From a virus: 64,000 bases of DNA. This document shows positions 26,912-52,376 of this stretch, piece after piece. The first letter of the stretch is position 1; each line of letters opens with the position of its first letter. Position numbers and translations under genes: made by a program. Where the stretch lies: IMG/VR virus record IMGVR_UViG_3300025000_000086, positions 6,791-70,790 of that record. One strand, 5' to 3'. The notes beneath the pieces were generated by a model, which saw only the letters and a list, made by a program, of their open reading frames with translations, ran no database searches and was not told the origin of the DNA.

Positions 26912-27181
26912 AATTATTCTCACCAAATCCTTCCGTCGATTTTTAAATTTTGCAATCTTTCAATTGCCAGCTCCGATTACCCAATAAAAAATAAAAAGAA
27001 GAGAGGCATCGGAATTTACCTCTCTTATCAACCACATTGGCCTATGTGATTTATCTTTTTCCACACAAAAACAAAAAAGAGCAGAAATTAATCCACTCTC
27101 AAAAAGTTAACCTACATTTTTAAATTTATAAGTATAATGTAGGTTAAATATTATATTAATAATTCAAATATTACGTTCTAA

Positions 27182-27439
27182 TCACAACTCTCTACCGCAC
27201 ATCATACAATACCCAATCTTAATCTCATCCAAAACTTCCATTCCTATATCATCTGCTTCAAACAAACTCAAATTGTTATTCTGAAAATATAAGAAATATT
27301 CTTTATCTTTAAAGTTAGATGATGTAGATAGGGTAGAGGATTTAGAAGATTTAGAAGATGATAAGAGTACGGTTGATTTTGAGCAGAAATTACATTCAAT
27401 TGATTCTTCTATATCTATATTATCTATTAATTTATTCAT
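27182..27439 (-). CDS. hypothetical Zn-binding protein
   Basis: CNFC...YCMMCGREL; RBS present. Confidence 0.6.
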   Translation of the reverse strand: MNKLIDNIDIEESIECNFCSKSTVLLSSSKSSKSSTLSTSSNFKDKEYFLYFQNNNLSLFEADDIGMEVLDEIKIGYCMMCGREL

Positions 27440-27724
27440 ATTTATATTTCCTTTTTATTTTATTTTTAAAACTATTATCTATCTTATTCACAACATAATA
27501 AAAAACAATAAATATTATTATTTGGATGGATTATTCCCCAGTTAACTGGGGAATAAGACAGACAACAAACCGCTTTAGCGGAATAGTATGATTGTGGAAT
27601 AAAGTGAACCATCACTCATATAAGTATGCCACCAAAAATGTCAAATCATATATAAAGTAGGATTCACTGTATAACTAAAAATTAAAAAGGATACGCTCTC
27701 TATAACTGTATAGAGGTATATCCT

Positions 27725-29701
27725 TTATGAAATATTATAATTTAAATTTATATATCTATTATTAGATTCAATATCTATATTTTTATCTTTGATATATTGT
27801 AACATTAATGGTTTATTCATTGACTTTTTAAATGTAATATCTTTCATATCTAATAATTCTTTAATTTTTGCTTTGCTTAATCCTTTATCTGTTAAAATAC
27901 CATCATTAATCAATTCATTTCTATAATCTTCATCTAATTTTACTTTTTCATAAAATTCAATTAAAGTATCTACAGTTTCTTTATTATTTTCTACTTGTTT
28001 TCCAGTTTTCTTTGATTCATATTTTAAATTCCAGTTATAATCAATCTGAATACCTGGCATTGCTTTTTCTATTAATGCATCAATTTCACGATCACGATTT
28101 ATAAGATATCCATAAGTTTCAGGACAATTTCCTTCAACATAACCTCTACATTTCACTCTATTTAAGGTCTGTACAATAAGTGATGAGATCGTAGATATTT
28201 TTACTTTTTCAAACTCTTTTTGTTTATATTTTCTATTACCCTTGACTGGAACAAGTGTAGTGTCTAAAGAATTAAATTTTTCTGCTGATAATTCATCTTC
28301 ACTCACAGAACTTGTAAAATACATTAATGGATATATTGCATCAGGTAATAATTGAATACCTAATACAAATATTTTTTCAAATTTACTCCATTTATTTGAT
28401 CCTACAGTTCTTCCGTAATGAGTTATATCAATTTGTTCTAATTTATCATAATCCTTCAATGCTTCTTTAATTAATTTATCTCTTTCTTCGCTATTAGTTA
28501 CAATTAAAACTTTTTCTTCACCTACTATTTTACTTTTAATATCTTCAATAATTGCACCTAATAATCCATCTTCTAATCCTTTCTTCATAGATGAAGATGA
28601 ACCTGTAACTCCATTAAAAATATTTAAATGCATATTCTTATATGATTTTATTTGTGGTAAATCTCTTACTTCTGATTTATCATCAATTTCATATAAATAA
28701 TTAATGCCAGATGTAGCATCTAATGTTATTTTATAAAAATAAGGATTATTTATATCTATATACTTATAAGTTATTATAGATTTATATTTGATATCTTTAT
28801 CAATATTAACGTATCCACCTGTTGCCAACATTGTTCTTATTGCCATATATGCTTCTTTTGCTTGTCTATCTTTACAAGAAAAAAATAATTCATCTAATCC
28901 TTCTGGCACTTCAACATTTTCAAAAGTGCAGAAGAATACACTGTTTTTCTTTATATCATATGACCGAAGAAATTCTTTCTTAATCTTAGTAATAAATCCA
29001 TTAAACTGATCATAAATATCTTCATTGCCAAAATTCATGATAGCATTTTCTATAGTAATTATAGTATTCATATTTATTGTCATAAATTGAACATTATTTA
29101 TTGCTTCATCTATAATTAATCTTTCTCTATAGTATGTATTATATTTACCATGCTTTGTATTAATTCTTTTGTCAGACCATTCACATAATTTTTGTATATC
29201 ATCTTTATCAATTAACTGCAAATATCCAGTATGAGTTAATACAATTACTGGATATTCCTTTAATTCATCATTACTGATAGAATTTTTTCTTCTATTGTTT
29301 TCAATATCCATTCCACTATGATAGGCATATGCTAAATCTATTCCAACCTTTTTATTAATTGTATTTACTGTTTCTTCACAATCTTCTATTGTTAATTTTA
29401 ATATAATCGTTCCTGCATATGATTGTAATAATTTATTTTTTAACATATAAGAAATTCCGTTATTCATAGCAGTACTCTTGCCACAGCCCGTAGGAAAGTT
29501 AACAATTGCTTTCTTGTCTCTGATTGGGTAGAATAAAATATAGTAAAGTAGTTGCTTTAATCCTTTATAATATTCTCCGTCATAAGGTATAACTACGTTA
29601 TAATTTGCTAATTCTTCCATTGTTAAATTGACAGCATTTATTACATGATTTTTCTTTGTTTCTAAATCCATCTTATCTAAAAATTCTTTGTAACTAATCA
29701 T
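27725..29701 (-). CDS. SF2 helicase-like protein (possible origin-binding replication protein)
   Basis: FPTGCGKST Walker A, LIIDEA, LDAT, GSN, Q...R.R motifs. Confidence 0.75.
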   Translation of the reverse strand: MISYKEFLDKMDLETKKNHVINAVNLTMEELANYNVVIPYDGEYYKGLKQLLYYILFYPIRDKKAIVNFPTGCGKSTAMNNGISYMLKNKLLQSYAGTIILKLTIEDCEETVNTINKKVGIDLAYAYHSGMDIENNRRKNSISNDELKEYPVIVLTHTGYLQLIDKDDIQKLCEWSDKRINTKHGKYNTYYRERLIIDEAINNVQFMTINMNTIITIENAIMNFGNEDIYDQFNGFITKIKKEFLRSYDIKKNSVFFCTFENVEVPEGLDELFFSCKDRQAKEAYMAIRTMLATGGYVNIDKDIKYKSIITYKYIDINNPYFYKITLDATSGINYLYEIDDKSEVRDLPQIKSYKNMHLNIFNGVTGSSSSMKKGLEDGLLGAIIEDIKSKIVGEEKVLIVTNSEERDKLIKEALKDYDKLEQIDITHYGRTVGSNKWSKFEKIFVLGIQLLPDAIYPLMYFTSSVSEDELSAEKFNSLDTTLVPVKGNRKYKQKEFEKVKISTISSLIVQTLNRVKCRGYVEGNCPETYGYLINRDREIDALIEKAMPGIQIDYNWNLKYESKKTGKQVENNKETVDTLIEFYEKVKLDEDYRNELINDGILTDKGLSKAKIKELLDMKDITFKKSMNKPLMLQYIKDKNIDIESNNRYINLNYNIS

Positions 29702-31243
29702 CTAAAATACCTCACTTTCAGGTATTTTATTTTTTATTTTTATATATTCATCATAATACATCCAAACTAATTTTGTACCATCTTGTAATTTAGTTGATTG
29801 TGTTATATGTCTACAACAATTTGATATATTTGAAGCGTAAATATTGTATGTATTAGAAGCATCTACTATACAATTAAAAATTTCTTTAGTTGTTAAACAT
29901 ATTATTTTCCTTTTATTTTTATTATTATATTCTTCTTTTGGATCATAATCACACCAATTTAATTTAACACCTTGCTTAAGATACCTTATAATTGTACTTC
30001 TACTTATATTAATTTTATTAATTATTTTTGAAACATTATTAATTCCACTATTCCATAAATCACAAACAACTTTTACTAAACTATTACAAGCAAATTCATG
30101 GCATTTTAACCAATCGACATCTTCTTTTTTGAAATTTAATAATTTAGGCAATTCACTATTCATAATACTATTTTTAATCCATTCCATATTTGATTCTCTA
30201 CAATCTAAAACTATGTAATTTTCAATATTATTTTCTTTTGCTAATTGTTCTTTTTGTTTATCATTTTCTTGATTTTCTTTTAAAGATTTTGATCTAGCCC
30301 AAGACCCAGTAATACGATCTTCGTAATGTTGTAAACCATGTGTTTCTACTATGCATTGAAAATTATCAATATAAAAATCATATTTATAATTACTACACCA
30401 TTTAAAAGTAGTTTTAGATAATTGTGCTTGAAAATTATTATTAAGTAATTGTTCTAATACATTAAACATAAATTTTTCTGGATAACTAACACCATCAGAA
30501 CACTTTTGGCAAGAAAGTCCATTCTTTATTAAAGTAGGAATTAAATATTCTCTTTCATGACCACATATAGGACATTTCATAAGAATTAATTTACTTGACC
30601 CTAATGAGTATTTATATGCATCTTCTTTATTTACTAGATATTCAGTCAAATGTGGATGTGTTATTGCTATAGTATTACATTGACTACATTTTATACTTCC
30701 TTTTTGACCACCAACAAAACAATGAATATCACGTAATTCACTTTTATGTTCAGGATGATCTAAACACTTAAACCAATATCCTTTTTTATTAAGACCATGA
30801 GAACTACAAGTCACATCACTAGGAGTTAATTTATTACCATTCTCGTCAATATTTAATTCATAATCCCATCTTTCCATAATTTTATTTGCTTCATTTTTAG
30901 GAAGATTTTCATAACACCAATCATAAAAAGATATCCATTTTTTATTTCCATTTGCGGCACATTTTGCACAATAATAACTTCCATCTTCTTTAACACATTT
31001 TAAATAATCTATCCATCTTACTTGTGGTAATATTGTTCCGCAAGCATTACATCGAACAATAACATTTGCATGACTTTTTGGACTTATATCTTCTATTTTT
31101 ATAATTATTTTTGTTCCTTGTTTAATTTTATTTTTTCTTCCTTGATTATCAGTCCATTTAGGAATTATATACCTTTTTTCTTCATAATAATTTGCATTAC
31201 TACCACTTATTACAACTTCAACTTCTTTGCTAATTAATCCCAT
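29702..31243 (-). CDS. free-standing putative homing endonuclease (Zn ribbons, Vsr-like nuclease, C-terminal NUMOD1-like)
   Basis: SYPEKF...YDFYI...IVETHGLQH...D..K; IICLTTKEIF..I..AS. Confidence 0.78.
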   Translation of the reverse strand: MGLISKEVEVVISGSNANYYEEKRYIIPKWTDNQGRKNKIKQGTKIIIKIEDISPKSHANVIVRCNACGTILPQVRWIDYLKCVKEDGSYYCAKCAANGNKKWISFYDWCYENLPKNEANKIMERWDYELNIDENGNKLTPSDVTCSSHGLNKKGYWFKCLDHPEHKSELRDIHCFVGGQKGSIKCSQCNTIAITHPHLTEYLVNKEDAYKYSLGSSKLILMKCPICGHEREYLIPTLIKNGLSCQKCSDGVSYPEKFMFNVLEQLLNNNFQAQLSKTTFKWCSNYKYDFYIDNFQCIVETHGLQHYEDRITGSWARSKSLKENQENDKQKEQLAKENNIENYIVLDCRESNMEWIKNSIMNSELPKLLNFKKEDVDWLKCHEFACNSLVKVVCDLWNSGINNVSKIINKINISRSTIIRYLKQGVKLNWCDYDPKEEYNNKNKRKIICLTTKEIFNCIVDASNTYNIYASNISNCCRHITQSTKLQDGTKLVWMYYDEYIKIKNKIPESEVF

Positions 31244-31410
31244 TCTAACATCTCCTTTAATATTATTTTTGATTTCCTTATAAAAATATTAATAAGCAGA
31301 CAGGTGTAAGGATTCACTTTTCGATGATCAGTCTAGTCTGCTTACTTGTGTTTATTTCAACACAAAAAAGAACATTCACAATTTGAATGTTCTAATTTCT
31401 ATTGAAATAT

Positions 31411-31713
31411 TTATTTATATTTATCACATATCTCCTTACTCTTACTTCTCAAATAATCACACAAATATCCCTTCACAATTTTCAATACAACATTTTTTGA
31501 TTGACCAAACTTTTTAGGATTAACTTGAATATCATTATTTTGAAAATCTTTAAATAAACTAATCAAATCATCTCTGACACCTTCAAAATGAAGAAATACT
31601 TTTGCTTTATTACCACGTTTCTCCACAATATCAAATCCAACAATCTCATAACCTAAATAATGCAAATAAGCACAAAAATTTGAATCAGAATATCTAAATA
31701 AAACTTTTTCCAT
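31411..31713 (-). CDS. small phage protein (DUF5659-like)
   Basis: D.NFCAYLHYLGYE...KVFLHF pattern; AAGGAG RBS. Confidence 0.55.
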   Translation of the reverse strand: MEKVLFRYSDSNFCAYLHYLGYEIVGFDIVEKRGNKAKVFLHFEGVRDDLISLFKDFQNNDIQVNPKKFGQSKNVVLKIVKGYLCDYLRSKSKEICDKYK

Positions 31714-32092
31714 AATCAAATGACACTCCTTTAATAATTATTTGTTAATAAAAAACAAAAAAAGAGAGGACATAATAATCCTCTCTCTCCACTAATCATA
31801 AATCAAAAACAAACTCCATATATCACCCAAATTAACCACTCAAATTTCCCACACCTACATTTTGTCCTAATCAAAATAAACCCTCTAAATAACCATAAAA
31901 TATCGTCAAAATTAATAATTACCAATATAATACAATTTTAAAATAGTTGTAATATAAAGGTTTGTTGGTTGTTTATTTTGATAGATTTTTAGCAGTTTAC
32001 TCTGCAATGGAATATGTTTTAAGTCTTTATTCCGACTAACCAAAATATCATTATGAAACAACAATTAGGTAACAATATTATTTCTCCTTAAT

Positions 32093-32121
32093 TTGACTTC
32101 CCACTAAACTTTTGCTATAAT
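32093..32121 (+). promoter_or_regulatory. antisense-oriented sigmaA promoter
   Basis: TTGACT-17 bp-TATAAT with TG extension. Confidence 0.6.
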
Positions 32122-32222
32122 ATATCCAACATAATATTAATTCTTCGCAGTTAACTTTCTGCAAAATAACACTAGAATTGGGTATCCATATGTTCTAGTG
32201 TTATTTTGTTTTTTAATTTTTA

Positions 32223-32486
32223 CTAATTATTTATTAATTTTATTAAATTTTGTAGATTAGGTATAAATTTTTTTACAGCATCAGCAGAAATTATTAATTC
32301 ATTATTATTAAGTAATTTTACAACTTGTTCATTTGGTTTAGTATTAAATAATTTATTTATTATATCTTTTACTTTACTATTATTTACTACTATTCCACCT
32401 GTAGGAATTATTAAACTATCATCATATTTCATCGTTATATCACCTTTCTCAAATAACTTATTTATCATATTCATAATTTTACTCAT
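32223..32486 (-). CDS. small protein homologous to the tape measure C-terminal segment
   Basis: GGI...DIINKLFNT..NE.VVK.L..EL.I....K.FIPN.QN matches the TMP C-terminus. Confidence 0.7.
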   Translation of the reverse strand: MSKIMNMINKLFEKGDITMKYDDSLIIPTGGIVVNNSKVKDIINKLFNTKPNEQVVKLLNNNELIISADAVKKFIPNLQNLIKLINN

Positions 32487-32622
32487 ATTAAATTCTCCTT
32501 ATTAATTATTAATTATTCTTATTAATTTACCTCCTCTATCTTGACATTTAAATGGAAAATAAAGTCACAATATGAAAGTGGGGGAGGAGCGAGAGGAGAC
32601 AATGTGTAAAAGGTAGAGGACT

Positions 32623-32979
32623 CTATTTTATTTCTCCACTAATATTAGCATCAGATTTAACATTACTATTGCTACTATTACTATTTTTATTCATTAATGT
32701 TTCGACCGATTTTACACTTACGCTCGCTAAAATTATTCCATTAATAAAATTTATAAAAATTGCTTCACCATTGAATATATTTTCTCCTAAAAAATGTTTA
32801 GATAAAAATAGTAAAAACTCAGAAATCATGAAAACTAGGTATTTCGTAGATAATGTTTTACCAAACGCTTTTTTATAGATGTTATCTACAATGTCTTTAA
32901 AATATTGTACTAGTAATACAACTACTAGAATTAAAGTTGTAATAGTAGATAGATTCTGAATTGAAATAAATTGTTCCAT
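32623..32979 (-). CDS. putative holin
   Basis: Three hydrophobic segments, directly after the endolysin. Confidence 0.7.
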   Translation of the reverse strand: MEQFISIQNLSTITTLILVVVLLVQYFKDIVDNIYKKAFGKTLSTKYLVFMISEFLLFLSKHFLGENIFNGEAIFINFINGIILASVSVKSVETLMNKNSNSSNSNVKSDANISGEIK

Positions 32980-33022
32980 AATAGAACACACTCCTTTAAT
33001 ATTTAATTATATTAATTTTATC

Positions 33023-33802
33023 TTATTTATTATTTATTTTCTCTAACAATCTTGCCATCATAGTAAATAACAACCAATTATCAGTTTTTTCATCCATTTT
33101 ATTACTCCATAAATTACCATCATTAATAATCCCATTTTTAATTAAACTATCCAATGAATTAATTCCTGCGTCTTTCATCCATTTTTCTATTGCCATATCA
33201 ATTAATTCCTCCTTGTTATTATTTGTATTTAAATTTTCTGTTACTTTTAATTGTAAATTAAAACATTTAACTAATCCATTTACAATCGAATCTGCTAATC
33301 CATCTAAAAACTTATTATCTTTAAGTAATTTAGCATTATTAGATGAAGATACAAATAAATTCTCTAATAAAATTGCTGGCATATTACTTTCACGTAAAAT
33401 ATGAAAATTACTTTTCTTCATACCACGATCAATTACATTATAATTTTTCAAATAACTCATTACTTCATTATGTATTACCTTTTGATATTCTATAGATTTG
33501 CTAGAAGGATTAGTATAAATATGTGATTCCCAACCACTTGCATTAATATTTGTTGCTGAATTACAATGGAAACTAATAAGATAATCAGCATTAATTTTAT
33601 TAGCATATTTTGTTCTATCAGATAATTGACCTCTAGGTAATACTATAATTTCACAAATGTATTTATTTTGTAGACGATCTATTACTTCATTAGAAATAAT
33701 TTCATTTAAATTTGCTTCTATCAAATTATTCCCACAAGCACCTGGATCATTTAATTTATACTGTGGAGTTATTCCATGACCTATATCTACCAAAATTATC
33801 AT
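33023..33802 (-). CDS. endolysin, N-acetylmuramoyl-L-alanine amidase (Amidase_3)
   Basis: VDIGHG, DPGA...E, ISFHCN, SGWE, PAILLENLF. Confidence 0.92.
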   Translation of the reverse strand: MIILVDIGHGITPQYKLNDPGACGNNLIEANLNEIISNEVIDRLQNKYICEIIVLPRGQLSDRTKYANKINADYLISFHCNSATNINASGWESHIYTNPSSKSIEYQKVIHNEVMSYLKNYNVIDRGMKKSNFHILRESNMPAILLENLFVSSSNNAKLLKDNKFLDGLADSIVNGLVKCFNLQLKVTENLNTNNNKEELIDMAIEKWMKDAGINSLDSLIKNGIINDGNLWSNKMDEKTDNWLLFTMMARLLEKINNK

Positions 33803-33838
33803 ATTTTAAATTCCTCCTTTTAATTTAACAAATTTCAA

Positions 33839-34195
33839 TTACTTCACTGCCATGTAAATACTCCCACCAATAGTTGCCAAACCTCCGAAAAATAAAATTA
33901 TTTGTATATATACCTTACTTTTCCCATCAATTTTTGCCACCTCAACTTTAGTAGAATTGTCTTGTTTGTTCATAAGTAAGTTATTCAATCCTGATAGCAT
34001 GGCATTATGATTGGTTAACATTTGCCCCTCGATCTTATCCATACTTTTTTTTAGGGATTCCTGACCTTGTTTAACATTATTTAATGTTTCATTATTCTTG
34101 GCAAATTCGATTTCTATACTTCTCAATCGTTCATCATGAGACTTTATTCGCTCATCTACTTCATTAAAACGCTCTTTAATTTCAATAGTATTCAC
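33839..34195 (-). CDS. XhlA/hemolysin-like lysis protein (probable GTG start 34195)
   Basis: Coiled coil (HDERLRSIE) plus C-terminal TM, upstream of the endolysin. Confidence 0.6.
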   Translation of the reverse strand: MNTIEIKERFNEVDERIKSHDERLRSIEIEFAKNNETLNNVKQGQESLKKSMDKIEGQMLTNHNAMLSGLNNLLMNKQDNSTKVEVAKIDGKSKVYIQIILFFGGLATIGGSIYMAVK

Positions 34196-34379
34196 TTTAC
34201 AACCATCTCCTTCCGAAATTTCATCAATTCCATTATAAAGACTTCCACAAAAATTCCTATCAATCTTATCATTCTTATAATTATTTTCACTATTTATCAT
34301 AAAACAATTGACACCTCTCTTATTATGTTATATAATTATAATCACACAATAATAAGTGCATTTTATTATTGCTGTTAAT

Positions 34380-34414
34380 AACTACAATGGAATGAGAGTG
34401 ATTCCATTGTAGTT
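34380..34414. terminator. hairpin terminator
   Basis: AACTACAATGGAAT/ATTCCATTGTAGTT inverted repeat. Confidence 0.55.
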
Positions 34415-34600
34415 TCAAAATACATATTAAACTAATCATAATTCAACATTGCAACAATCTAACAATCTAAAATAAAATTAATCTTAGAATCTCAATTAAA
34501 TCTCCGCGAGAGCCTACGAGCACCAGAGAGGTTTATATTGAGATTCTATTTATATTTTTAAACATATTTCTAATAACACAATTCTAATTCCATAATCAAT

Positions 34601-35704
34601 TTATACCACCATATAACTTATTCCTTCACCACTTACAGAAGAATCTATGTATATTAAATTTGCGTTAGACACTTCAATTGTTCTATATTCTAATTTTTCA
34701 ATTTCTACTCCATAGACAGTAGAAGATACATCACTTCCACCAATGTAAATATATCCTGTATTTGCTCTTTTAGCAGTTATTGTTACTTTTTTACAAGAAA
34801 TACCAGGTAATTGTACTCTGGTTCCAGCAGTAGTAACATTAATAGTTGCGCCTGTTAATGTACCACTACTAATTATTTTCATACTACCAGGATTAACATC
34901 AGTAAACTTTTCTGTTCCATCTGCATTAATAGGCACTATTTTACCAATATTAGCAGTACCACTTGGAATAGGGTTAGTTATCTCAATAGGTAATGCACCA
35001 GTACCATCCCCTTGTAATTGTTTTATAATACCTTTTGAAAAAGCAATTAAACTACCAGATAATGTAGGATCTATAATTGGACTATCTGCTTTTAATCCAA
35101 TACCAACAATACCACCATCAGATGAATTTATACTACCAGGATTTAGACTAGTAAATATTTCTGTTCCTGAAGAATTTTTATTTACTATTCCATTTGTAAC
35201 CCCAGGAGTAGTTTGATCAATTTTAACACTAGGGATATTATTTATTTCAACAACATTATTATCGCTATTTAGTGCCATTGCTTTACCTAATACAGTAATA
35301 TTACCACTTGTATAAGAAGTAATTTCTGCTCTAATTTTTAACAAACAATTACAATTAACCTTATAAATACCAGGAGAAGTAATTAATGATAAAATATTAT
35401 TATCATCTTTAGTTACTTTTATTGGTACAAAATTAGCACCATCTACACTTCCTTTTACAGTTATTTCTCCTACAAATGTTCCTGTTACTTGTAATTTTAC
35501 TGTCCCATACCCATCAACTGTAAAATCTACACCATTGCCTATTGCTGAAGCAGAATCTTGTAGAATTAAATTCTTAGGTTTAGCAGAATGTATCATTACA
35601 TATTGAGAATTGCTTTCGCCTTTAATTTCTGTATACTGTAAACTATTAGCATCTAAAATTTGTGGTACAAAATTACCATCTTGGTCTGTAATTAAAACTG
35701 CCAA
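34601..35704 (-). CDS. virion/tail-associated beta-rich protein
   Basis: G/T/S-rich, located in the tail module. Confidence 0.6.
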   Translation of the reverse strand: MAVLITDQDGNFVPQILDANSLQYTEIKGESNSQYVMIHSAKPKNLILQDSASAIGNGVDFTVDGYGTVKLQVTGTFVGEITVKGSVDGANFVPIKVTKDDNNILSLITSPGIYKVNCNCLLKIRAEITSYTSGNITVLGKAMALNSDNNVVEINNIPSVKIDQTTPGVTNGIVNKNSSGTEIFTSLNPGSINSSDGGIVGIGLKADSPIIDPTLSGSLIAFSKGIIKQLQGDGTGALPIEITNPIPSGTANIGKIVPINADGTEKFTDVNPGSMKIISSGTLTGATINVTTAGTRVQLPGISCKKVTITAKRANTGYIYIGGSDVSSTVYGVEIEKLEYRTIEVSNANLIYIDSSVSGEGISYMVV

Positions 35705-35730
35705 ATATATTCACTCCTTTTATATTAATA

Positions 35731-36090
35731 TTATAAATATGGATATATTTTAGGTATTTTACTACCTACAGATACATTAAAATTATTCTGATTACTTTTA
35801 TTTCCAAATATATTTAATTGTAATATTTCCGCATTTATTATTTCTACAGTAATAAATTTAGTTTTATCTGTTGTATTTATAATATTGCTAAATTCATTTA
35901 GTCCTTCTAGTTCTGATATTTCATAAATATTATTACTAATCATTATATTATAAATATTAAATTCTCTAACTATATAACTAGAAAGAGTATTACTTGTAAT
36001 AACTTTCCCATACAAGTAATACTCTTCATTAGAATTCACGTTCATTTTATAAAATTTCTGATTAGATATTTCTGATAAAATTAAATCCAT
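35731..36090 (-). CDS. hypothetical tail-region protein
   Basis: GAGGTGG RBS before MDLILS. Confidence 0.55.
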   Translation of the reverse strand: MDLILSEISNQKFYKMNVNSNEEYYLYGKVITSNTLSSYIVREFNIYNIMISNNIYEISELEGLNEFSNIINTTDKTKFITVEIINAEILQLNIFGNKSNQNNFNVSVGSKIPKIYPYL

Positions 36091-36111
36091 ATAATCAATT
36101 ACCACCTCATT

Positions 36112-41640: not shown

Positions 41641-41670
41641 TTAAAATCACCTACTTTGCAATATACTAAA

Positions 41671-42177: not shown

Positions 42178-42201
42178 TTAATTATCATCTACTCCTTTCA
42201 T

Positions 42202-42486: not shown

Positions 42487-42494
42487 CTTCTTTT

Positions 42495-43109: not shown

Positions 43110-43126
43110 ACAATCACACTCCTCCA

Positions 43127-44320
43127 TTAAATTATATTATTTAAACAACTTACTAAATCATTTAAATCACTTGCTCTTAAATCATCTGCGTCTTCATCAT
43201 CTATAACATCACTAATTCCTAATTTTGTTGTTGGCAAATTTGTTCCATTCATTGGGAGAATGGCATTTCTTGATTCATTGAACATACTTGCATAAAATAT
43301 ATTACCACTATAAGCAATTGTAAAATTAATAGTAGATAAATTTTTGTACTGTCTAAATAGATTTATTTTACTATTTAAATTATTCCATTCATAATAAATT
43401 AAATTTGTTGCTGGATCACCTTGTATTTTTGGCGTATCCCAAGAAAAATTACTTGGCCTTGCATCAGTTGTTACATATAAATCATTTGACCAATAATAAC
43501 TATTTAACCAACTATCTTCAGGAAATACATGATAACTTGATAAAGCATTAAATTTATATTCTGTATCTGGAGATAAATTTGTAAATGTTACTATTCTATC
43601 ACCAGAATTATAACCATCATAATATATTCTTTGTATTTGTGATAATACACCATTTAAATATAAATATACTTCTATTTGTGTCCAATTTCCTATCATTCCA
43701 TCTGCTAGTCTAATATCAATAGTATATGTTGAAACAGCAGACATAGTAATATTACCTGGAGATTTAGGAGTGGTTACATAATCACCTTCATCTCCATATG
43801 AGGAAACACCTTGAGAATTTTCTGCTCTTACATCAAAATAATATCTATATCCATATAATGTATTATTTAAAGTATAATATGTATTATAAATTGGAGTTGC
43901 ATATTGCCATCCACTATTGCCTATATATGCTAAAGTATAAAAATCAGCATAATCAGAAGGATTCCAATTAATTCTAAATGTACCTTCTCCTTGATTAGTT
44001 ACCCAAGGTGTTCCTGAAGGTGTTTCTGGCGCAGGAGTATCTGTTATTTCTGAAATATAATATCCATCTCCACCAATAACATACCACGCACCTTGATAGT
44101 ATGCTTTACAACAAAAACTATACCATGTATCAGGTGATAATCCATCATATGTAAACACATTACCACCTACACCTGTTTGACCACGCCAAGCATAAGGGTC
44201 TTCTGGATCAGTTCCTACATACCAAGCAAAATCATCATACTCAGATAATGGATATTGTAAACCATCTGCATAAACTGTAATTGATGTTGATGTTATATTA
44301 CTTGTTGATAACCATGACAT
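43127..44320 (-). CDS. fibronectin type III repeat virion protein
   Basis: GLSPDTWY, YYFDVRAEN, NLSPDTEYKF motifs. Confidence 0.75.
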   Translation of the reverse strand: MSWLSTSNITSTSITVYADGLQYPLSEYDDFAWYVGTDPEDPYAWRGQTGVGGNVFTYDGLSPDTWYSFCCKAYYQGAWYVIGGDGYYISEITDTPAPETPSGTPWVTNQGEGTFRINWNPSDYADFYTLAYIGNSGWQYATPIYNTYYTLNNTLYGYRYYFDVRAENSQGVSSYGDEGDYVTTPKSPGNITMSAVSTYTIDIRLADGMIGNWTQIEVYLYLNGVLSQIQRIYYDGYNSGDRIVTFTNLSPDTEYKFNALSSYHVFPEDSWLNSYYWSNDLYVTTDARPSNFSWDTPKIQGDPATNLIYYEWNNLNSKINLFRQYKNLSTINFTIAYSGNIFYASMFNESRNAILPMNGTNLPTTKLGISDVIDDEDADDLRASDLNDLVSCLNNII

Positions 44321-44440
44321 TTATATTATTCACCTACTTTAAAAATACAAATAAAATATAATAGATTTAATATTTGTTATATATTAAATCTATTATATAA
44401 ATATTATGTTATTTATAGTTAATTATAGTATTATAATTAC

Positions 44441-44656
44441 TTATTTAACATTTTCTAATTGTATTAACATATCTTTATATTTAATAATATCAGTATCAAT
44501 CCTATTAATTTCTAATTGAAGATTATTTTTTCTTGCTCCCAAGTCAATTAATTGTTTATAGATAAATTCAGGTGTTATTGTTTGTTCTTGAACAACTGTT
44601 TGCCTTACTTTCATTACACCATTATCATTAATTATTTCCATAGTATTGTCTGCCAT
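44441..44656 (-). CDS. small coiled-coil tail-region protein
   Basis: AAGGAGG RBS. Confidence 0.65.
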   Translation of the reverse strand: MADNTMEIINDNGVMKVRQTVVQEQTITPEFIYKQLIDLGARKNNLQLEINRIDTDIIKYKDMLIQLENVK

Positions 44657-44834
44657 TAGGGAATTCCTCCTTTAAATTTAAATTTTATTTGTAGTTTAAT
44701 TTGTAATTTAATAATAAATCATAATAAATTTATAATAATTATATTTATCGACATTAAAACACATATACCAACATTCTTTGTCAAAGGAAATGACTCCTGA
44801 CTATAGAATTAACATAGAGAAAGGAGGTGGTATA

Positions 44835-45044
44835 ATGAGTATAGGTGGATTTAGAATGCCACAAATACCATCAATTGAAACTGATAGTGATTGTGAACAT
44901 ATTCCAATTTGTGAAAAACTAGATATAATTACAAAAGATTGTTTTAGAGGAGTGCATCCTATGAGAAGATGCAATCAAGGTCAATATGCTCAAATTAAAA
45001 TTCTTTCAATGATTCTAAATCGACTCCCATCCCAACAAGAATAA
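44835..45044 (+). CDS. small Cys-containing accessory protein (start MSIGG)
   Basis: GAAAGGAGG RBS. Confidence 0.55.
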   Translation: MSIGGFRMPQIPSIETDSDCEHIPICEKLDIITKDCFRGVHPMRRCNQGQYAQIKILSMILNRLPSQQE

Positions 45045-45153
45045 ATTTTTGTAATTCTTTTATTTTTAAAATTTCTATAAACATACTTTCCAACTGTTCT
45101 TTAAGAGCAGTTTCTTTTTGTTCATTTGTTTGGACAGTTTTTTCTTTATTCAT
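44995..45153 (-). CDS. small hypothetical protein (52 aa)
   Basis: AAGGAG RBS; MNKEKTVQ...LKEF. Confidence 0.5.
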   Translation of the reverse strand: MNKEKTVQTNEQKETALKEQLESMFIEILKIKELQKFILVGMGVDLESLKEF

Positions 45154-45248
45154 AATAAAAACACTCCTTTTTATTTTATTTTATTATATTTGATTAAAAT
45201 AAAAAGACCTCTTAATGAGGTCTTAATTGTTAACACATTTTAATTAAA

Positions 45249-45944
45249 TTAATTAACTTTATTCTCAAGTAGATTAACATTCTTTTTATTCCAACGCTTT
45301 AGAATATACTGAATACCCTTTGGTGTCACAAGTGTAACCGGAATATCCACAATTTCACCTTTTATATACATAGATTTTATAATCACTAAAAAGTATCCAG
45401 CGTCGATAAATTGTTGTCTAGGTATATTATGTCTTTCCTTTTTCGACATTAATATATCTTCACTTCTGAGAAAGGCGAACATTTTATTCCTGCCTTTGAG
45501 TTTTAATACTTTAGCAACTTGGAGCATTGTGAAGTTGCTCCTTGTGTTAATTACTTGGTTATAGAATTCTATTTTAGGTTGTTGTTCCTCTAGTTTTTGT
45601 TGGAGCAGTATTAATTCTCCTTTCCTTAAACCTTCTAAAAGATTCCAAACCCAATCCATAAAAGCATTTGCATTTGACTGTCTACTCCAACGACATATTT
45701 CATAAATACCTCTTGCTTCGTATAAATATGTGTTTCTTCCGTTTACCAAAGTGGTAAATGAATATTTATCAAGTCGCTCTTTATGCCTATCATGAATTTT
45801 CCCAATTGCAGTCATCGGATCTGAGTATTCCAAAGCAATCCCCATTTGTTCTCTTGTCATAAAAATATCATTATTAATATTTCTATATAAATCACATACA
45901 GTACCCTGAAAATTTTCACTCTTATATAATACTAAATCATTCAT
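45249..45944 (-). CDS. phage antirepressor (Bro-N plus KilA-C/ANT)
   Basis: FMTREQMGIALEY..P...I, F.DWVW, AK.L..GRNK.F..LR, TLVTPKG. Confidence 0.88.
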   Translation of the reverse strand: MNDLVLYKSENFQGTVCDLYRNINNDIFMTREQMGIALEYSDPMTAIGKIHDRHKERLDKYSFTTLVNGRNTYLYEARGIYEICRWSRQSNANAFMDWVWNLLEGLRKGELILLQQKLEEQQPKIEFYNQVINTRSNFTMLQVAKVLKLKGRNKMFAFLRSEDILMSKKERHNIPRQQFIDAGYFLVIIKSMYIKGEIVDIPVTLVTPKGIQYILKRWNKKNVNLLENKVN

Positions 45945-46431
45945 CTTGCTCACCAACTTCTCCAACGAAGCTAAAAATACAACTGTCACAAAAATCTAAA
46001 GAATTAACAATTTCACCACTATTTTCTCCATCATCATAATGACTTCCGTAATTAATACTGCCACTGTGGACTCTCCATATTGTTTCTTCTGGCACTAATA
46101 TTTCTTTGCCACATTTATAACATCTAGGATATATAAATTTTCTTTCTAATGTACAGACACCAACTATGTAGTCATTAGTTTTAATAGAAACCACATCAAA
46201 ATAAAAATCATTATTCAAATTAGATATTGAATTAATTTTACTTAACTCAATAGAAGTTACTACACAATCATCCTCTGATTGATCATGAAATTGGATATAT
46301 TCATCTGTTAATTGGTAGGAGAATGAGTTATAAACGTAAGTTGCTGATAGTGTATTATTTAGTAAAGAGTGGAAACTTATTTCACATTTTCTGTCTACGA
46401 ATTGGTTTAGTAGATTATAGTTATTCTTCAT
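45937..46431 (-). CDS. hypothetical protein with Zn finger
   Basis: GGAGG RBS; CYKC...YGS.YD...FCDSC. Confidence 0.65.
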   Translation of the reverse strand: MKNNYNLLNQFVDRKCEISFHSLLNNTLSATYVYNSFSYQLTDEYIQFHDQSEDDCVVTSIELSKINSISNLNNDFYFDVVSIKTNDYIVGVCTLERKFIYPRCYKCGKEILVPEETIWRVHSGSINYGSHYDDGENSGEIVNSLDFCDSCIFSFVGEVGEQDE

Positions 46432-46560
46432 AATAAAAACTCCTCCATTTAATTTAATTATAAGGTGCGTAAATCAAAATCAACCTTACAATCATATTGT
46501 AATAGAAGAGTTTCATTTTGTCAATAATAACTTTACAAAATTAATAATAAAAATTTCTAT

Positions 46561-46785
46561 TTAGTCTTTGATAATTTTACATTCATATAAATCTGTTATT
46601 TTACAATCTAAAGCGTAAGCTATTTTTTCTAATGATTGTATAGTAGGGTTATCTGATTTTTCAAGTGAATTGAGATTTTGTCTACTAACACCTGCTTTAT
46701 TAGCAATAAAAGTTCTGCTTGTTCCATACTTTGCTTGATACTCATTTATTCTTTCTTCTATTTTATTGGTTATTTTAATCTTCAT
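46561..46785 (-). CDS. XRE-family HTH regulator
   Basis: IANKAGVSRQNLNSLE...PTIQSLEKIAYALDC.I.DL. Confidence 0.88.
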   Translation of the reverse strand: MKIKITNKIEERINEYQAKYGTSRTFIANKAGVSRQNLNSLEKSDNPTIQSLEKIAYALDCKITDLYECKIIKD

Positions 46786-47031
46786 ATAAACCACACCATC
46801 CTTCACCTATATTATACTACAACTACGTATGTATCGGTAGGTGAATGTTTGTTAATACTATAATACAATATGGAAGGGAATATGTCAAGTAAATTGTCAA
46901 TATAATTATTTTTTTATTTTGTTAATATAGATAGCAATTTACCATTTATTTTTTGCAATATACACATTTGCATTACCATATAATTTATGGTATAATAATA
47001 CAAAACTAAATTTAAAAAGGAGAGTAATATT

Positions 47032-47610
47032 ATGTTTAAAATTAACAATAAGAATATTCAGAAAATTAAATATTTTAGTTTAGGATTAATTACAAGTAGT
47101 TTATTATTTTCTTCAGTTACTTTTGCTGATAACTCTGCTATAAAAATTTATTTAAATGGCAAACTACTTGAAAATGCAGAAGTTATCAATGTTAATAATT
47201 CTACTTATTTGCCTGTGAGAAAATTATGTGAAGCATTAAAAATGAAAGTTAATTTTGATAGTGCAAATAATAGTGTGATTATTGATAGTAGTGATATAGA
47301 TGTTAATAACATACAAACTAAACAAATTCAAGAAAATCAAAAATCTCAACAACAAAATAGTATTAATAATACATCTAATGATATTAAAGAAACTACTTAT
47401 AATGGAATTAAATCAATTAATATTAATGGAAAAACATATTTTAATGGTAGAGAATATAATATTAAATTTCCTGGTATTCTAAATTGGGACAATAAAAAAC
47501 AAAAAGCGTATATTAAAACAGATAATGAACATATAGAAATAGAAAATTTGCCAGAAAATATTCAATTATTATATGGACAAAGTTATTTTAATATTAAATA
47601 TTATAGATAA
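47032..47610 (+). CDS. secreted protein with copper-amine-oxidase N-terminal (stalk) domain
   Basis: Signal peptide, IKIYLNG, TYLPVR..EAL..V.FD. Confidence 0.75.
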   Translation: MFKINNKNIQKIKYFSLGLITSSLLFSSVTFADNSAIKIYLNGKLLENAEVINVNNSTYLPVRKLCEALKMKVNFDSANNSVIIDSSDIDVNNIQTKQIQENQKSQQQNSINNTSNDIKETTYNGIKSININGKTYFNGREYNIKFPGILNWDNKKQKAYIKTDNEHIEIENLPENIQLLYGQSYFNIKYYR

Positions 47611-47612
47611 TA

Positions 47613-50558
47613 TTAACCAAGTTTAGCAACTAATGGTTGATCCAATCTATTAACTCCTGAATATACACCACCAAGAGCAGTTAAATAAATTGCATTTGCA
47701 TTAGGAGTATAAAACATACCATCACCTGTAGAACCCCATGTTACACCACTATTAAAATCAAGTGGATTTAAAATTAATTGATTCCCGACAGAACAATCTG
47801 TCCCAACATCAATAGTTGTATCAGTCGTAAGACTCCCAGCAGTTACAGTACCTAAATTTGCAGTAATTGCAGATAATGTATTTACACTAATTTTATCTGC
47901 ACTTACACTATTGTCAGATAAATAATAACCATTAATTTTAGTATTTAATTCACTTAAAATATCTATACCTTGTATTCTTAATGTATTACAATCAATATCA
48001 CCTGTAACTTCTGCATCTTCTGCATGAAGGAATCCACCAGGAGTTACTCTAAATTCAGCATTAAGGAATGTACTCGCACCTAAATATAAACCATTTTCAT
48101 CAATATGGGTTTCTCCAGCAGTACCAGAATTAATCTCGACATAACCTTTTGTTACCAAATTACCATCGTTATTTATATAGAATAAATCATCCCACACTGG
48201 GGCTTCAATCGTTCCAGTATTTTTTTGGATCTTTATGCCGTTTGAAATATTCATTATTATTCTACTCTTACTATCTGTTTTAGTTATTATTAATGACATA
48301 TCTTCAATATTTACACCATTTTGGTCTACAGAAAAATTGCCTGCTTCATTGGTTATTGTTAATATTGTAGATGCAACAATTTGGCCAATTAACTTATGTG
48401 CATATACCCCCGACCCATCAATTGCAATATCTAAAGAATTCCATCCGTTGGTTGTTAGTGCAATTATTCCATGCATAAGACGAATTGCCTTTTGAACATC
48501 ATCAGGATTCGTTATGGTTATTCCTCTACCATTTATTTCTACTGATTCATTTACTCCTGCTAATATTTCTCTTAAAGATGAATCCCATTTATTATTTAAT
48601 ATATCATTTACATCACTTTTAATATCATTAGCACTATTCCATCCAAATTTATTTTGCTCAACTGTAATCCCTGCATTTATACTTTGATTTAGCATCTGTA
48701 AATATTTGTCTTTATTTTGATTTATATCTTTTAAGTTACTAATTATTACAGAGATATTACTATTTTCAAAATCATATGTAATTTCATTAATTTTTGCTTT
48801 CACATTGACATTGAATTTATCGTATCGTATATTTACAATTTCTGACAATTGTAACTTATCCCTATCATATTGACAACCAATGTCAATGCAACCAAATAAA
48901 TCCACTATATCAATCTCGATTATTGTCGCAGGCTGATAGATTTTTGCAAATTCCAATTTCCCCCAATTTAACAATTCTTGGACATCCGAAATATACTCAT
49001 TTCTTACTTCTTTCTTAATTATAAATGACCTTTTTAATTCTAATATTTGTTCTGGTGTAAAATTATTACTCACAGATAAAAGATCAGTTAATATATTCAT
49101 CTGAATATTTATATTACTAATTTGATTCTCTAAACCATTATTAACTTTACTACCAATAGTACAAGTAACTCCTGTGCTATCTGTATCAGTAAATGTAATA
49201 TCAAAATTTGCTTGATCTTTGGTTGTAAAATAAATTATACTGACAGTATCATTAATAACACTACATTTAAAGATAGGAATTAGAGGGAATTTATTATCAT
49301 AATTATAATATATACTATTAATATAGTTATTTATTTTTGTAGCAACAGTATTTATTGTATCTCCTAAAACTACTGGAATATCTATTACCTTATCATCAAT
49401 AGTTAAATTAATATTACCATCAACAATACATGGATTAGTAATTGTAATATCCACTAATATCGAGTTAATATCTTTATATTTATTATCTAATTCTATTTGT
49501 TTATTATTTCTATCTGTGATAAGTGTAGATGTGTCTAAATTATTTGCTTGCCCAATATCAATAGCATCTAAAATTACATACATTTCTGTTTTTAAATCTG
49601 TTAAATCAGTATTTGCAGTATTTAATGTTTCTTGCAATGTTATTTTTTGTGTTAGTAAACTATTATATTCTCCTTCTTTTGAAGATAATAGATCATTGTA
49701 ATCTAATATAGAATTCGCTAAATCATCCGACATGTAATCGCTATGAATTAATACATTTTTATTTTCGTCCCTAGAGAATGGATATAAAAAATAAGTAAAA
49801 TTCTGCAAAAATGGCATCCCTGTAGTGTTAGAACTGGCAATAGATATATTATCTTTACCATAAATATACAATTGTGTACAAAATGAATCAGGATCTATTG
49901 TATTATTTATTGATTTTAAATATTTACCGTATGCGAAAGATAATCCCCTATCTAATCCGTATGTCTCAATATCATACAGACTAACAGTATAATTTATTGT
50001 ATCAAATACAACTAATGCCCCAAAGGTATTAGCTATATCATCACATATAGTATCTAAGGCAGTCTTTCCAGAAATATCAAATTGTCGAAACATAATGTCG
50101 AATTTTGTATCTATATGTCCAATTATCCATGTAGTGTCGCTTAAAATATCCGTCAACACAGTAGTAGCATTAATAGAATCAGTTGTTTTATATCCATTTA
50201 TAATTTCATTATTTAACAAATAAGCCAAAGAAAAACAAGTAATATTTTTTATTGCTGTGTTATCTTCAGTGTCGTTATCTTCTGGCAAATTTATAATAAA
50301 ATATTCAACATAATCATTTAAAACAAATTTAATTAAATACCTATGTTTGAGTAAATTATAATTCGGATTCACAATATATTCATGATTTATATCTTTATAA
50401 TAATTTAACGAAAATGAGAGTTCATTTATTGATGATAATTTTAAATTTAGTGTAATATTAAAAGCATCTGATAACTTGCCAATTATAGATAAATTTGGTT
50501 TACATACATATAAATCTGGTTTTTGTCCAATTTTTGAATAATCAATTTCAAATGACAA
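47613..50558 (-). CDS. tail spike/Tal-like (prophage tail endopeptidase-family) protein
   Basis: SPbeta-like N-terminus (SSINELSFS, YGKYLKSI, YIYGKD), coiled coils, C-terminal beta repeats. Confidence 0.8.
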   Translation of the reverse strand: MSFEIDYSKIGQKPDLYVCKPNLSIIGKLSDAFNITLNLKLSSINELSFSLNYYKDINHEYIVNPNYNLLKHRYLIKFVLNDYVEYFIINLPEDNDTEDNTAIKNITCFSLAYLLNNEIINGYKTTDSINATTVLTDILSDTTWIIGHIDTKFDIMFRQFDISGKTALDTICDDIANTFGALVVFDTINYTVSLYDIETYGLDRGLSFAYGKYLKSINNTIDPDSFCTQLYIYGKDNISIASSNTTGMPFLQNFTYFLYPFSRDENKNVLIHSDYMSDDLANSILDYNDLLSSKEGEYNSLLTQKITLQETLNTANTDLTDLKTEMYVILDAIDIGQANNLDTSTLITDRNNKQIELDNKYKDINSILVDITITNPCIVDGNINLTIDDKVIDIPVVLGDTINTVATKINNYINSIYYNYDNKFPLIPIFKCSVINDTVSIIYFTTKDQANFDITFTDTDSTGVTCTIGSKVNNGLENQISNINIQMNILTDLLSVSNNFTPEQILELKRSFIIKKEVRNEYISDVQELLNWGKLEFAKIYQPATIIEIDIVDLFGCIDIGCQYDRDKLQLSEIVNIRYDKFNVNVKAKINEITYDFENSNISVIISNLKDINQNKDKYLQMLNQSINAGITVEQNKFGWNSANDIKSDVNDILNNKWDSSLREILAGVNESVEINGRGITITNPDDVQKAIRLMHGIIALTTNGWNSLDIAIDGSGVYAHKLIGQIVASTILTITNEAGNFSVDQNGVNIEDMSLIITKTDSKSRIIMNISNGIKIQKNTGTIEAPVWDDLFYINNDGNLVTKGYVEINSGTAGETHIDENGLYLGASTFLNAEFRVTPGGFLHAEDAEVTGDIDCNTLRIQGIDILSELNTKINGYYLSDNSVSADKISVNTLSAITANLGTVTAGSLTTDTTIDVGTDCSVGNQLILNPLDFNSGVTWGSTGDGMFYTPNANAIYLTALGGVYSGVNRLDQPLVAKLG

Positions 50559-50616
50559 TAAATTTCACCTAACTTTCTTTATTATTATTTAAATATATAG
50601 AGATTTGTATTAATTG

Positions 50617-52212
50617 TTAGTTAAAAATGTATTTATTTAATATTTCTTCAATATTATCAAAATCCCAATACCATATTTCAAGTAAATTTATATTATTATT
50701 CCATGCATAAATACATTTTCTTTGATCGTGTTCTAATTGTTTTTTAAATTGTTCTTCTGATTCATGGAATCCTGGTATATATTTTTCATGCTGTTCACCT
50801 TGATATTCAATCAATAAATTTAATTTGGGTATGTAAAAATCATAAGATAATAAACCATTTCCCAAACCTACTAAACCATTAAATTTCATTTGAGGAATAA
50901 AATAATTCTTATTATATTTATCTTCATCAATTAAATTATCAAAATCTTCTTGTGATATTTTAATCCAATTTTTATTAATTAATATTCTATCTATTTCTTT
51001 TTCACCTTTACTTTTACAGCATTCAGGACAACCAAATCCACTATTTCTACTATAAATATATGCTTCCCATTCATGCTCACATTCTTTACATACCCACCAA
51101 GCGTATTTGCCACTGTTGGGACAAAACTCTTCAGGTCTTTTTTCATTCTTCTTATAATCCCATTCTTCACATAATTCAGGATTATTAACTAGTAAATTAT
51201 AGTCTTTTGAAGGTAATTGTCCTGCACAATAAGGGCAACCACAACCAGAATTTCTACTATTAATTGTCGCAGGCCACTCATGTCCTTTATCACATTGCCA
51301 CCAAATATCTTTACTACCACTTACAGTAACATCAAAAGGAGTCAAATCACCGTTCAACGTAGGATGCCACTGTTTTGCAAGTTCAGGGTTTTTAGTTGCA
51401 AGACAATTGGATAAGGCAATTTGTTTACCAACACAAACTCCACAACCTTGATTATTTGTTATTATTTGATCTATACTTGCTCTAAATTCTTCTCCACAAT
51501 TTTCTTTTAAACATTTCCATTTTAATTTCTTTTTACTTCCTTCATATGTATCACTTAATAATTCAAACGGTTTATTATTTAATTTACACCATAGTTTTAT
51601 ATTTTGTATTGTATAAGGATTAGATTTATTGAATTTATCTGGTGTAGTTTTTTGTTGTAAATCATTCCATGTTATAAAATAATAATAATCTTCATTATCT
51701 TTTAATATAAGTTTTGAAGCAGAATTAACATATTCATCACTTATTAATTCATAATTTAAATTACGTATAAATTTTTTAACTTGTTCATATGTAAGTTTTG
51801 AATTTTCTATACGTTTAATATTTTGACAAATAGGACACTTTGTACCACTTAAAAAACTATGTGGTGTAACAGGCCATTCATGATCGCATTTATTATGTTT
51901 TATCAATATATTTGTTTTATTATTTATATATTCACCAATAACTTCATATTCATCACCAACTAATTGATAAACTTCTTCTTTAAATTGTTTTGTATCTTTT
52001 TTATTATTGCCAGAACACTTAGTACATCTAATATTTTTATTTAAAAAACTATCAGGATAAATACTCCATTCATAATTACTACAACTTTCATTATTATGCC
52101 TAATCTTAACTTTTATTCTAGCATTAATATATTCGTCTAATATAGTATATTCATCCCCAACTAAATTATATACTGCTTGTAAAAATTCATCGTTAGTTCT
52201 TTTTCTTGGCAT
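50617..52212 (-). CDS. free-standing putative homing endonuclease, close paralog of 25712-26911
   Basis: Same Zn-ribbon repeats and SKGE...LSYD...LIEYQGEQH nuclease; additional N-terminal repeats. Confidence 0.8.
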   Translation of the reverse strand: MPRKRTNDEFLQAVYNLVGDEYTILDEYINARIKVKIRHNNESCSNYEWSIYPDSFLNKNIRCTKCSGNNKKDTKQFKEEVYQLVGDEYEVIGEYINNKTNILIKHNKCDHEWPVTPHSFLSGTKCPICQNIKRIENSKLTYEQVKKFIRNLNYELISDEYVNSASKLILKDNEDYYYFITWNDLQQKTTPDKFNKSNPYTIQNIKLWCKLNNKPFELLSDTYEGSKKKLKWKCLKENCGEEFRASIDQIITNNQGCGVCVGKQIALSNCLATKNPELAKQWHPTLNGDLTPFDVTVSGSKDIWWQCDKGHEWPATINSRNSGCGCPYCAGQLPSKDYNLLVNNPELCEEWDYKKNEKRPEEFCPNSGKYAWWVCKECEHEWEAYIYSRNSGFGCPECCKSKGEKEIDRILINKNWIKISQEDFDNLIDEDKYNKNYFIPQMKFNGLVGLGNGLLSYDFYIPKLNLLIEYQGEQHEKYIPGFHESEEQFKKQLEHDQRKCIYAWNNNINLLEIWYWDFDNIEEILNKYIFN

Positions 52213-52376
52213 ATTAAATTAAATCCTCCTTATTTATAAATATTATAATATTATTCCTCACTCAAAAATAAAAATAGAGATGGGTAGAGAGGAGGTTCTA
52301 CCCATTTTTCAGTAGGTTAATTACTCCTACCTATCCCTATAAAATTATATTCATAATTAATCAATCAATCAAACAA

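Follow-up and report, generated by a model that had tools for sequence, protein, structure and literature searches.

The question raised by this locus is why three free-standing nuclease genes in one stretch of viral DNA are each preceded by the same folded RNA, and what that RNA might do there. The stretch consists of 64,000 nucleotides (nt) of the IMG/VR virus record IMGVR_UViG_3300025000_000086 (positions 6,791 to 70,790), referred to throughout as the window, and all coordinates are those of the window unless a relative is named. The RNA is a three-way junction in which the loop of the third arm (P3) is complementary to sequence farther downstream. It is real and shows covariation, it lies within the 5' leaders of all three nuclease genes, its relatives belong to the int-alpA family of Rfam (RF02996), and it may set the translation of the gene that follows it. 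The three open reading frames (ORFs) carry DUF4379 treble-clef zinc-ribbon repeats according to Pfam, and all have matches to PHROG families annotated as HNH or homing endonuclease:

25712..26911, minus strand: nuclease A, 399 amino acids (aa), DUF4379 (Pfam PF14311, E 6.7e-40; PHROG 559/9084, 'HNH/homing endonuclease').
29702..31243, minus strand: nuclease B, 513 aa, between the leader and a helicase gene (Pfam PF14311; start codon at 31243).
50617..52212, minus strand: nuclease C, 531 aa, DUF4379, in an endonuclease hotspot upstream of a tail gene (Pfam, PHROG).

In each minus-strand leader the elements can be read in the order P1-UA-P2-GAWAA-P3-P1', and the shared three-way junction with a pseudoknot reported in the preliminary description of this DNA stands for all three genes. 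Copy B has the exact arrangement P1-UA-P2-GAAAA-P3-CU-P1' with short stems (2 base pairs (bp) in P2 and 3 bp in P3), copy C keeps UA and GAAAA but lacks J31, and copy A has UA, GAUAA and U, its descriptor match giving stems of 7, 8 and 8 bp. The cores and their parts are listed with bit scores from Rfam and from R2, a covariance model described below:

26993..27060, minus strand: core of copy A, P1-UA-P2-GAUAA-P3-U-P1', long-P2 variant (R2 26.3 bits, E 0.004; no Rfam match).
Parts of copy A, minus strand: P1 27060-27054/26999-26993; P2 27051-27044/27037-27030; GAUAA 27029-27025; P3 27024-27018/27007-27001.
31294..31343, minus strand: core of copy B, short-P2, canonical int-alpA-like (RF02996 30.8 bits; R2 63.1 bits).
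Parts of copy B, minus strand: P1 31343-31336/31301-31294; GAAAA 31322-31318; P3 hairpin 31317-31304.
52274..52340, minus strand: core of copy C, long-P2 variant (descriptor match; R2 59.6 bits; no Rfam match).
Parts of copy C, minus strand: P1 52340-52334/52280-52274; P2 52331-52326/52316-52311; GAAAA 52310-52306; P3 52304-52297/52288-52281.

Single-sequence folding energies of the three leaders are not significant alone (z = -0.87, -2.08 and -1.15), and a loose descriptor of the fold gave approximately 2.8 chance matches per shuffled window. Because three copies were unconvincing alone, relatives of the three nucleases were taken from viral contigs and searched (L-numbers denote the loci of these relatives), and the case for the fold rests on the relatives and not on the window copies alone. 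With a stricter descriptor, further clean copies came to light a short way upstream of homologous nuclease genes; their helices differ, their loop-tail pairs match, and they were obtained independently of the covariance model. MAFFT alignments of all copies were inconsistent with the structure, and a covariance model (R1) was therefore seeded from two relatives of equal length, both of which pass Rfam; it recovers B, C, the long-P2 forms and further copies. Model R2 was built from 13 sequences of both subtypes and yielded 46 matches at E up to 5 over 100 sources, with approximately 17 distinct non-window loci below E 0.01. Built from other loci and run on the window's own record, the covariance model scored copy B at 63.1, copy C at 59.6 and copy A at 26.3 bits (E 0.004). 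Low R2 scores also include plain hairpin-plus-Shine-Dalgarno (SD) sites, and a fourth match in the window (60641-60745), weak and within coding-like sequence, was judged false.

In an alignment of 27 sequences fitted to the model, 93.4% of cells are paired, all 16 modelled pairs change on both sides, and none of 500 shuffles scored as high; sliding the partner lowers pairing to 45-58%. The earlier observation from three copies, that the stems differ and yet all pair around kept UA and GAWAA junctions, agrees with this covariation. The functional strand is the one that reads in sense with the downstream gene, as G-U pairs show (they form the first P2 pair in 14 of 27 sequences), and the complementarity of the loops to their own tails lay above all 2000 permutations of the tails.

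The centres of the P2 apical loops are, by eye, very often palindromes of 4-6 nt (GGCC, GAUC, UAAUUA, UCAUGA, UUCGAA, UGUACA and UUGCAA). Palindromic P2 loops occur in the window at 27043-27038, 31331-31325 and 52325-52317, and also in L017, L018, L020, L041, L051, L058, L074 and L140. They could reflect loop-loop dimerisation, a palindrome at the level of DNA, or a hairpin perfected by template switching.

The RNA had been put forward as undescribed, and this claim of novelty is corrected here, as the fold is already catalogued: relatives reach RF02996 int-alpA above its gathering score, the cut-off of 35.8 bits being passed in an E-value-mode Rfam scan by L026 (46.8 bits), L041 (38.8 bits) and L030 (38.3 bits). 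For the window copies themselves the Rfam scan is less direct, since copy B reaches 30.8 bits, 5 under the cut-off, and copies A and C give no RF02996 match even at E up to 10. The Rfam consensus reads P1 (8 bp), UA, P2 (4 bp), GAAAA, P3 (5 bp, loop AaaCCuUua), CU, P1', a linker and AAGGG. The order of elements, the junction letters UA/GAAAA/CU, the CCUU-type P3 loop and the 3' AAGG box are the same here, whereas in A and C the P2 stem is 6-8 bp long and its loop is long, and GAUAA replaces GAAAA in A. As A and C are undetected by the Rfam model and are linked to int-alpA through our own model R2, they were filed as a long-P2 variant. By sequence, they are best regarded as such a variant of the int-alpA family and not as certified members, with B appearing near-canonical; continuity with accepted members runs through intermediates, from the Rfam-passing pair behind R1 to B, C and the long-P2 forms. 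The integrase/alpA neighbourhood is absent around the window copies, which precede nuclease genes, and the phage copies in general sit at homing endonuclease or replication genes of AT-rich phages and not in integrase/alpA islands.

RF02996 is an orphan motif that reportedly stems from the survey of Weinberg et al. in 2017. A search of the open full-text literature for 'int-alpA' returned no functional study, the mentions being a listing of the RNA in E. coli strains and gene-order wording, and the name does not occur in the main text of Weinberg et al. 2017 (PMC5737381). The endonuclease/replication-gene context, the two-box pairing and the capture of a leader by nuclease B, all set out below, were not found described in the literature searched.

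What does the P3 loop pair with? This loop resembles the anti-SD tail of 16S rRNA, and the preliminary description held it to be complementary to a downstream SD-like tract. The complementarity is present in A, B and C, but the tract is not the SD of the gene; it is a separate box (box 1) upstream of the SD, in most copies 6-19 nt downstream of P1'. It is followed, another 4-24 nt on, by a similar box (box 2). In the window the boxes are as follows:

26972..26977, minus strand: box 1 of copy A, AUCGGA (6 bp with P3 loop UCCGAU, 27013-27008; predicted duplex -8.8 kcal/mol).
26931..26935, minus strand: possible box 2 of copy A, CGGAA, pairing with loop UUCCG (complementarity by eye; upstream of the likely SD, not on it).
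31275..31280, minus strand: box 1 of copy B, UAAGGA (6 bp with P3 loop UCCUUA, 31312-31307).
31252..31257, minus strand: box 2 of copy B, the SD AAGGAG (AAGGA pairs with loop UCCUU; 9 nt to the start codon at 31243).
52255..52259, minus strand: box 1 of copy C, GAGGA (5 bp with loop UCCUC within 52295-52289; -8.3 kcal/mol).
52225..52230, minus strand: box 2 of copy C, the SD AGGAGG (loop CCUCCU; predicted free energy -10.4 kcal/mol; start codon at 52212).

The predicted complementarity between loop and SD amounts to 5 nt in B and 6 nt in C; in A, where the likely SD is GGUGAG (26924-26919), the second match lies off it, and the two-box feature is the weakest of the three.

The pattern is general among relatives. 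At least two separate sites of at least 5 nt complementary to the instance's own loop occur within 55 nt in 27 of 34 loop-non-redundant instances, whereas permuted loops give 7.6 two-site instances on average and 17 at most (0 of 5000 reach 27), and in 24 of these 27 cases an open start codon follows box 2 by 3-15 nt. Duplexes with box 1 and box 2 have mean predicted energies of -8.0 and -8.4 kcal/mol, respectively, the more stable duplex being that of box 2 in 13 cases and of box 1 in 11, with 3 equal. Outside the SD core, the two boxes have bases in common that are particular to the instance (GCAAGG twice in L020, GGUUGG twice in L143, CGAAGG twice in both L151 and L159, and UAGAAAGGAU), a 10-nt box match is found in L142, and canonical proteobacterial copies also have the two-box pattern. 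A leader-peptide model was considered and rejected, as short ORFs follow box 1 in L026, L129, L014, L074 and copy A but are not general. In L026 (after 2476) and L129 (after 2143) such an ORF, of 6-8 codons, runs across box 2, and its stop codon overlaps the main start codon in an AUGA.

Which genes the RNA serves was addressed by scanning five large related phage genomes whole, because loci derived from nucleases are biased. Nine motif matches were found at E up to 0.01, six of them before genes other than DUF4379 genes; the nine genes encode two DUF4379 nucleases, two GIY-YIG endonucleases, a 171-aa zinc-ribbon protein, a protein like the N terminus of nuclease B, a helicase, a primase-like protein and a truncated remnant. 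In the same genomes 3 of 18 DUF4379 ORFs have the motif upstream. It also precedes an HNH gene (L069) and NUMOD-type endonuclease genes (L181 and L185) at further loci, is absent from most relatives in the family of nuclease B, and was found at none of 15 bacterial nuclease loci; homologues of the nucleases in bacterial assemblies are mainly from Clostridia-type Bacillota. Canonical copies were fetched with a pattern from the Rfam consensus, giving 31 viral contigs, approximately 13 of them distinct. In those inspected the order is a P4-type integrase, the motif, a gene for 240-310 aa without a Pfam family, and AlpA, with the element beginning shortly after the integrase stop codon and extending to the next start codon; one exceptional copy precedes a weak TnsA-like nuclease and another an FkbM methyltransferase. 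The element is conserved from Bacillota-type phages to proteobacterial elements.

These counts bear on two ideas of the preliminary description. That the RNA moves with this nuclease family is borne out in so far as nuclease leaders carry it, but the small share of DUF4379 ORFs, the majority of other genes, the empty bacterial loci and the helicase origin of leader B (below) speak against a bond to that family. A nuclease-bound RNA cofactor is unsupported because unrelated proteins share the leader. The third idea, a cis-regulatory RNA, was judged the best reading and is likely. A tRNA gene was seen directly upstream of the motif in L093 (2317-2390) and approximately 75 nt upstream of it in L074 (4136-4236).

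How the nuclease genes came by the leader is seen most clearly at nuclease B, which lies between the leader and the following gene:

27725..29701, minus strand: helicase-like gene, 658 aa, resident owner of leader B in relatives.

In all five helicase relatives the leader is immediately followed by the helicase, and no nuclease intervenes. A relative's leader, through approximately 20 nt of the helicase ORF, aligns to window positions 31423-31220, and a second alignment places the 33 nt that precede the relative's helicase start at 29740-29702, where the nuclease B frame ends. The helicase start region is accordingly present twice on the minus strand, at the start (31220-31243) and at the end (29702-29740) of nuclease B, and looks like an insertion footprint. 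From this duplication and from relatives without the nuclease, nuclease B appears to have inserted at the helicase start region and to have taken over the resident leader together with its SD, a tangible instance in which the translation signals of a resident gene have passed to a homing endonuclease gene. Where the window has copy C, upstream of the tail gene, other endonuclease genes are found in four relatives, each with the motif, and the sole relative with a Bro/Ant gene there has no motif. L058 and L140, which represent the same locus after a portal gene, share a block of approximately 135 nt that is 87% identical, includes a compensatory G-C to A-U change in P3 and ends exactly at the start codon; the ORFs behind it are unrelated (DUF4379 in L058, GIY-YIG in L140). 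The shared block with its swapped downstream genes, and the nuclease B and copy C loci, indicate that the leader is a discrete module, which endonuclease genes would bring along with them or, alternatively, acquire by insertion at its 3' edge.

Two observations may be added on these loci. In L058, part of the upstream 545-aa gene (LPEGEK.GSCSLN..., portal by eye) recurs in a 72-aa frame (3273-3491) that comes just behind the inserted nuclease gene, and this recurrence could be another insertion footprint. Leader B has an additional hairpin, also noted by eye:

31347..31363, minus strand: extra 5' hairpin GUGU...ACAC, between the upstream terminator and P1 of copy B.

The same hairpin stands upstream of P1 in the helicase-type and primase-type leaders L176-L180, L138 and L141, and reads GUGC/GCAC in L179.

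The leaders are read as divergent int-alpA members, used by several endonuclease families, and it is hypothesized that their P3 loop chooses between a decoy box and the real SD. In this mechanism a three-way junction with conserved UA, GANAA and YU would present a loop that imitates the anti-SD tail of 16S rRNA and that may pair with either box, the two pairings being mutually exclusive and of near-equal predicted energy. Pairing with box 2 would hide the ribosome-binding site and turn translation off, and pairing with box 1, the decoy, would leave it free and turn translation on. Either the folding of the junction or a factor bound to it might tip the balance, and the conserved junction nucleotides suggest that a binding site, or else a tertiary fold of definite shape, is responsible. 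We infer that the loop toggles between the boxes, that regulation runs in the direction just given and that a trigger exists, and place the probability of the reading as a whole at about 0.5. Several points weigh against it. The second match of copy A is only 5 nt long and is not on the likely SD, and 7 of the 34 instances are without a second site. Loop and boxes resemble the anti-SD/SD consensus, so that part of their likeness is generic, for which the permutation controls account only partly, and many instances are phylogenetically related. The 27-sequence alignment, having been fitted to the model, favours covariation. Rfam types RF02996 as 'Gene; sRNA' (small RNA) and not as a cis element. 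Finally, box 1 is transcribed first and lies closer to the loop; were it always to win, there would be no repression and no need of a switch.

A broader proposal is more tentative, namely that int-alpA leaders are portable two-state translational switches answering to some signal and that at least four unrelated homing endonuclease families may have spread by inserting exactly at the boundary of leader and start codon, thereby inheriting control. Three results make int-alpA a testable regulatory hypothesis: it forms a leader that reaches up to the start codon, its P3 loop matches both a decoy and the true ribosome-binding site, and, across a range from Bacillota-type phages to Proteobacteria, the genes behind it include endonuclease, helicase, primase-like and satellite genes.

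The advantage of box 1 leads directly to the best surviving alternative, a static leader in which the junction and the pseudoknot of loop and box 1 are constitutive and protect or insulate the 5' region of the messenger RNA (mRNA), with the STAB-SD of cryIIIA as a precedent and the match to the SD as a by-product of both boxes being SD-like. That box 1 is transcribed first and is nearest the loop, that the Rfam model stops at box 1, and that copy A and 7 of 34 instances are without a clear second site are all as this reading would have them. It leaves unexplained why box 2 fits its own loop better than permuted loops (0 of 5000), shares instance-specific flanking bases with box 1, and forms a duplex at least as stable as that of box 1 in 16 of 27 cases, and we consider it unlikely.

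The junction might instead be the target of a protein or ligand, either as a riboswitch-like pocket or with its two GGA boxes serving as sites for a dimeric regulator of the CsrA type, the bound factor setting the pairing. For regulators of this type a GGA consensus and a spacing of sites are established, and the leaders offer two GGA-containing boxes 4-24 nt apart, one on the SD, along with junction nucleotides (UA, GANAA, YU) that are kept across phyla while the helices vary. The downstream genes of mobile elements share no metabolite, however, and the covariation of loop and box shows RNA-RNA pairing, for which a protein-only model has no need; this reading is quite unlikely.

Slightly less credible still is a trans-acting sRNA, in which transcription would end in the U-rich linker after P1' and the anti-SD-like loop would pair in trans with both boxes of leader-bearing mRNAs. 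The Rfam type 'Gene; sRNA' suits it, as do the U-rich run after P1' in AT-rich phage copies and a terminator scan that flags P3 and the tail in A and C. The linkers of the GC-rich canonical copies, by contrast, mostly have no U run (e.g. UCCCGACC and AAGUAUUU), so a GC-rich stem followed directly by a U run, the mark of an intrinsic terminator, is not found across members. Furthermore, the partner boxes are always in cis within 55 nt, and the canonical element spans from the vicinity of the integrase stop codon to the next start codon.

A self-cleaving or processing element that separates the endonuclease message from the upstream transcript is highly improbable: the context of phages and mobile elements, the RAGATH-18 RNA in the same window and, as a weak hint, the conserved UA step of the junction would suit it, but no ribozyme family was matched among the Rfam covariance models, and the hammerhead and twister cores are absent. 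Hammerhead, twister and tRNA-like readings had been dropped by eye because core sequences or the T arm are missing. Chance hairpins and ordinary terminators in AT-rich intergenic DNA, to which the weak folding z-scores, the 2.8 loose-descriptor matches per shuffled window and the low-scoring R2 matches to plain hairpin-plus-SD sites might point, can practically be dismissed in view of the covariation, the permutation tests, the Rfam matches and the conservation from phages to Proteobacteria.

The surroundings of the three genes may be described briefly. The IMG/VR record that holds the window is 70.8 kilobases long with an estimated completeness of 39%, and queries of GenBank phages with the window DNA and the tape-measure protein found no near relative. 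At the gathering threshold, Rfam finds only RAGATH-18 in the whole window:

12076..12137, plus strand: RAGATH-18 RNA (63 bits), one base after a 235-aa TnpB-like ORF; joint span 11367-12137.

The 235-aa TnpB-like protein has OrfB_IS605 and Cas12f1-like TNB domains and is short for its family. A 2024 paper (PMC11061315) is reported to describe guide RNAs of IS607 TnpB nucleases that derive from RAGATH-18.

Among known leader systems, the proposed switch resembles in setting that of homing endonuclease genes of phage T4. T4 genes such as I-TevI have hairpins that sequester the ribosome-binding site; in the present leaders, too, a structure ahead of a free-standing endonuclease gene may pair with that site. 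Here, however, the sequestering strand would be the loop of an arm of a three-way junction, a decoy box is present, and the element is common to non-nuclease genes. An internal late promoter of the T4 kind was not found near the copies, where the counts of sigma-70-like matches do not stand out from those in shuffled sequence (6 against 3.1, 0 against 2.6 and 4 against 3.2), with the limit that this consensus may not be the phage's own. In the preQ1-II and SAM-II riboswitches and the S15 rpsO operator, a pseudoknot at or adjoining the SD sets translation and two conformers compete. The leaders, as proposed, are alike in having a pseudoknot that involves or adjoins the SD and two competing conformers, and differ in that the alternatives are near-identical boxes and not a hairpin against a pseudoknot. 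The STAB-SD of cryIIIA mRNA is an upstream SD-like stabiliser; likewise an SD-like box in a 5' leader far from the start codon, box 1 differs from it in pairing with an internal loop and in occurring in Proteobacteria too.

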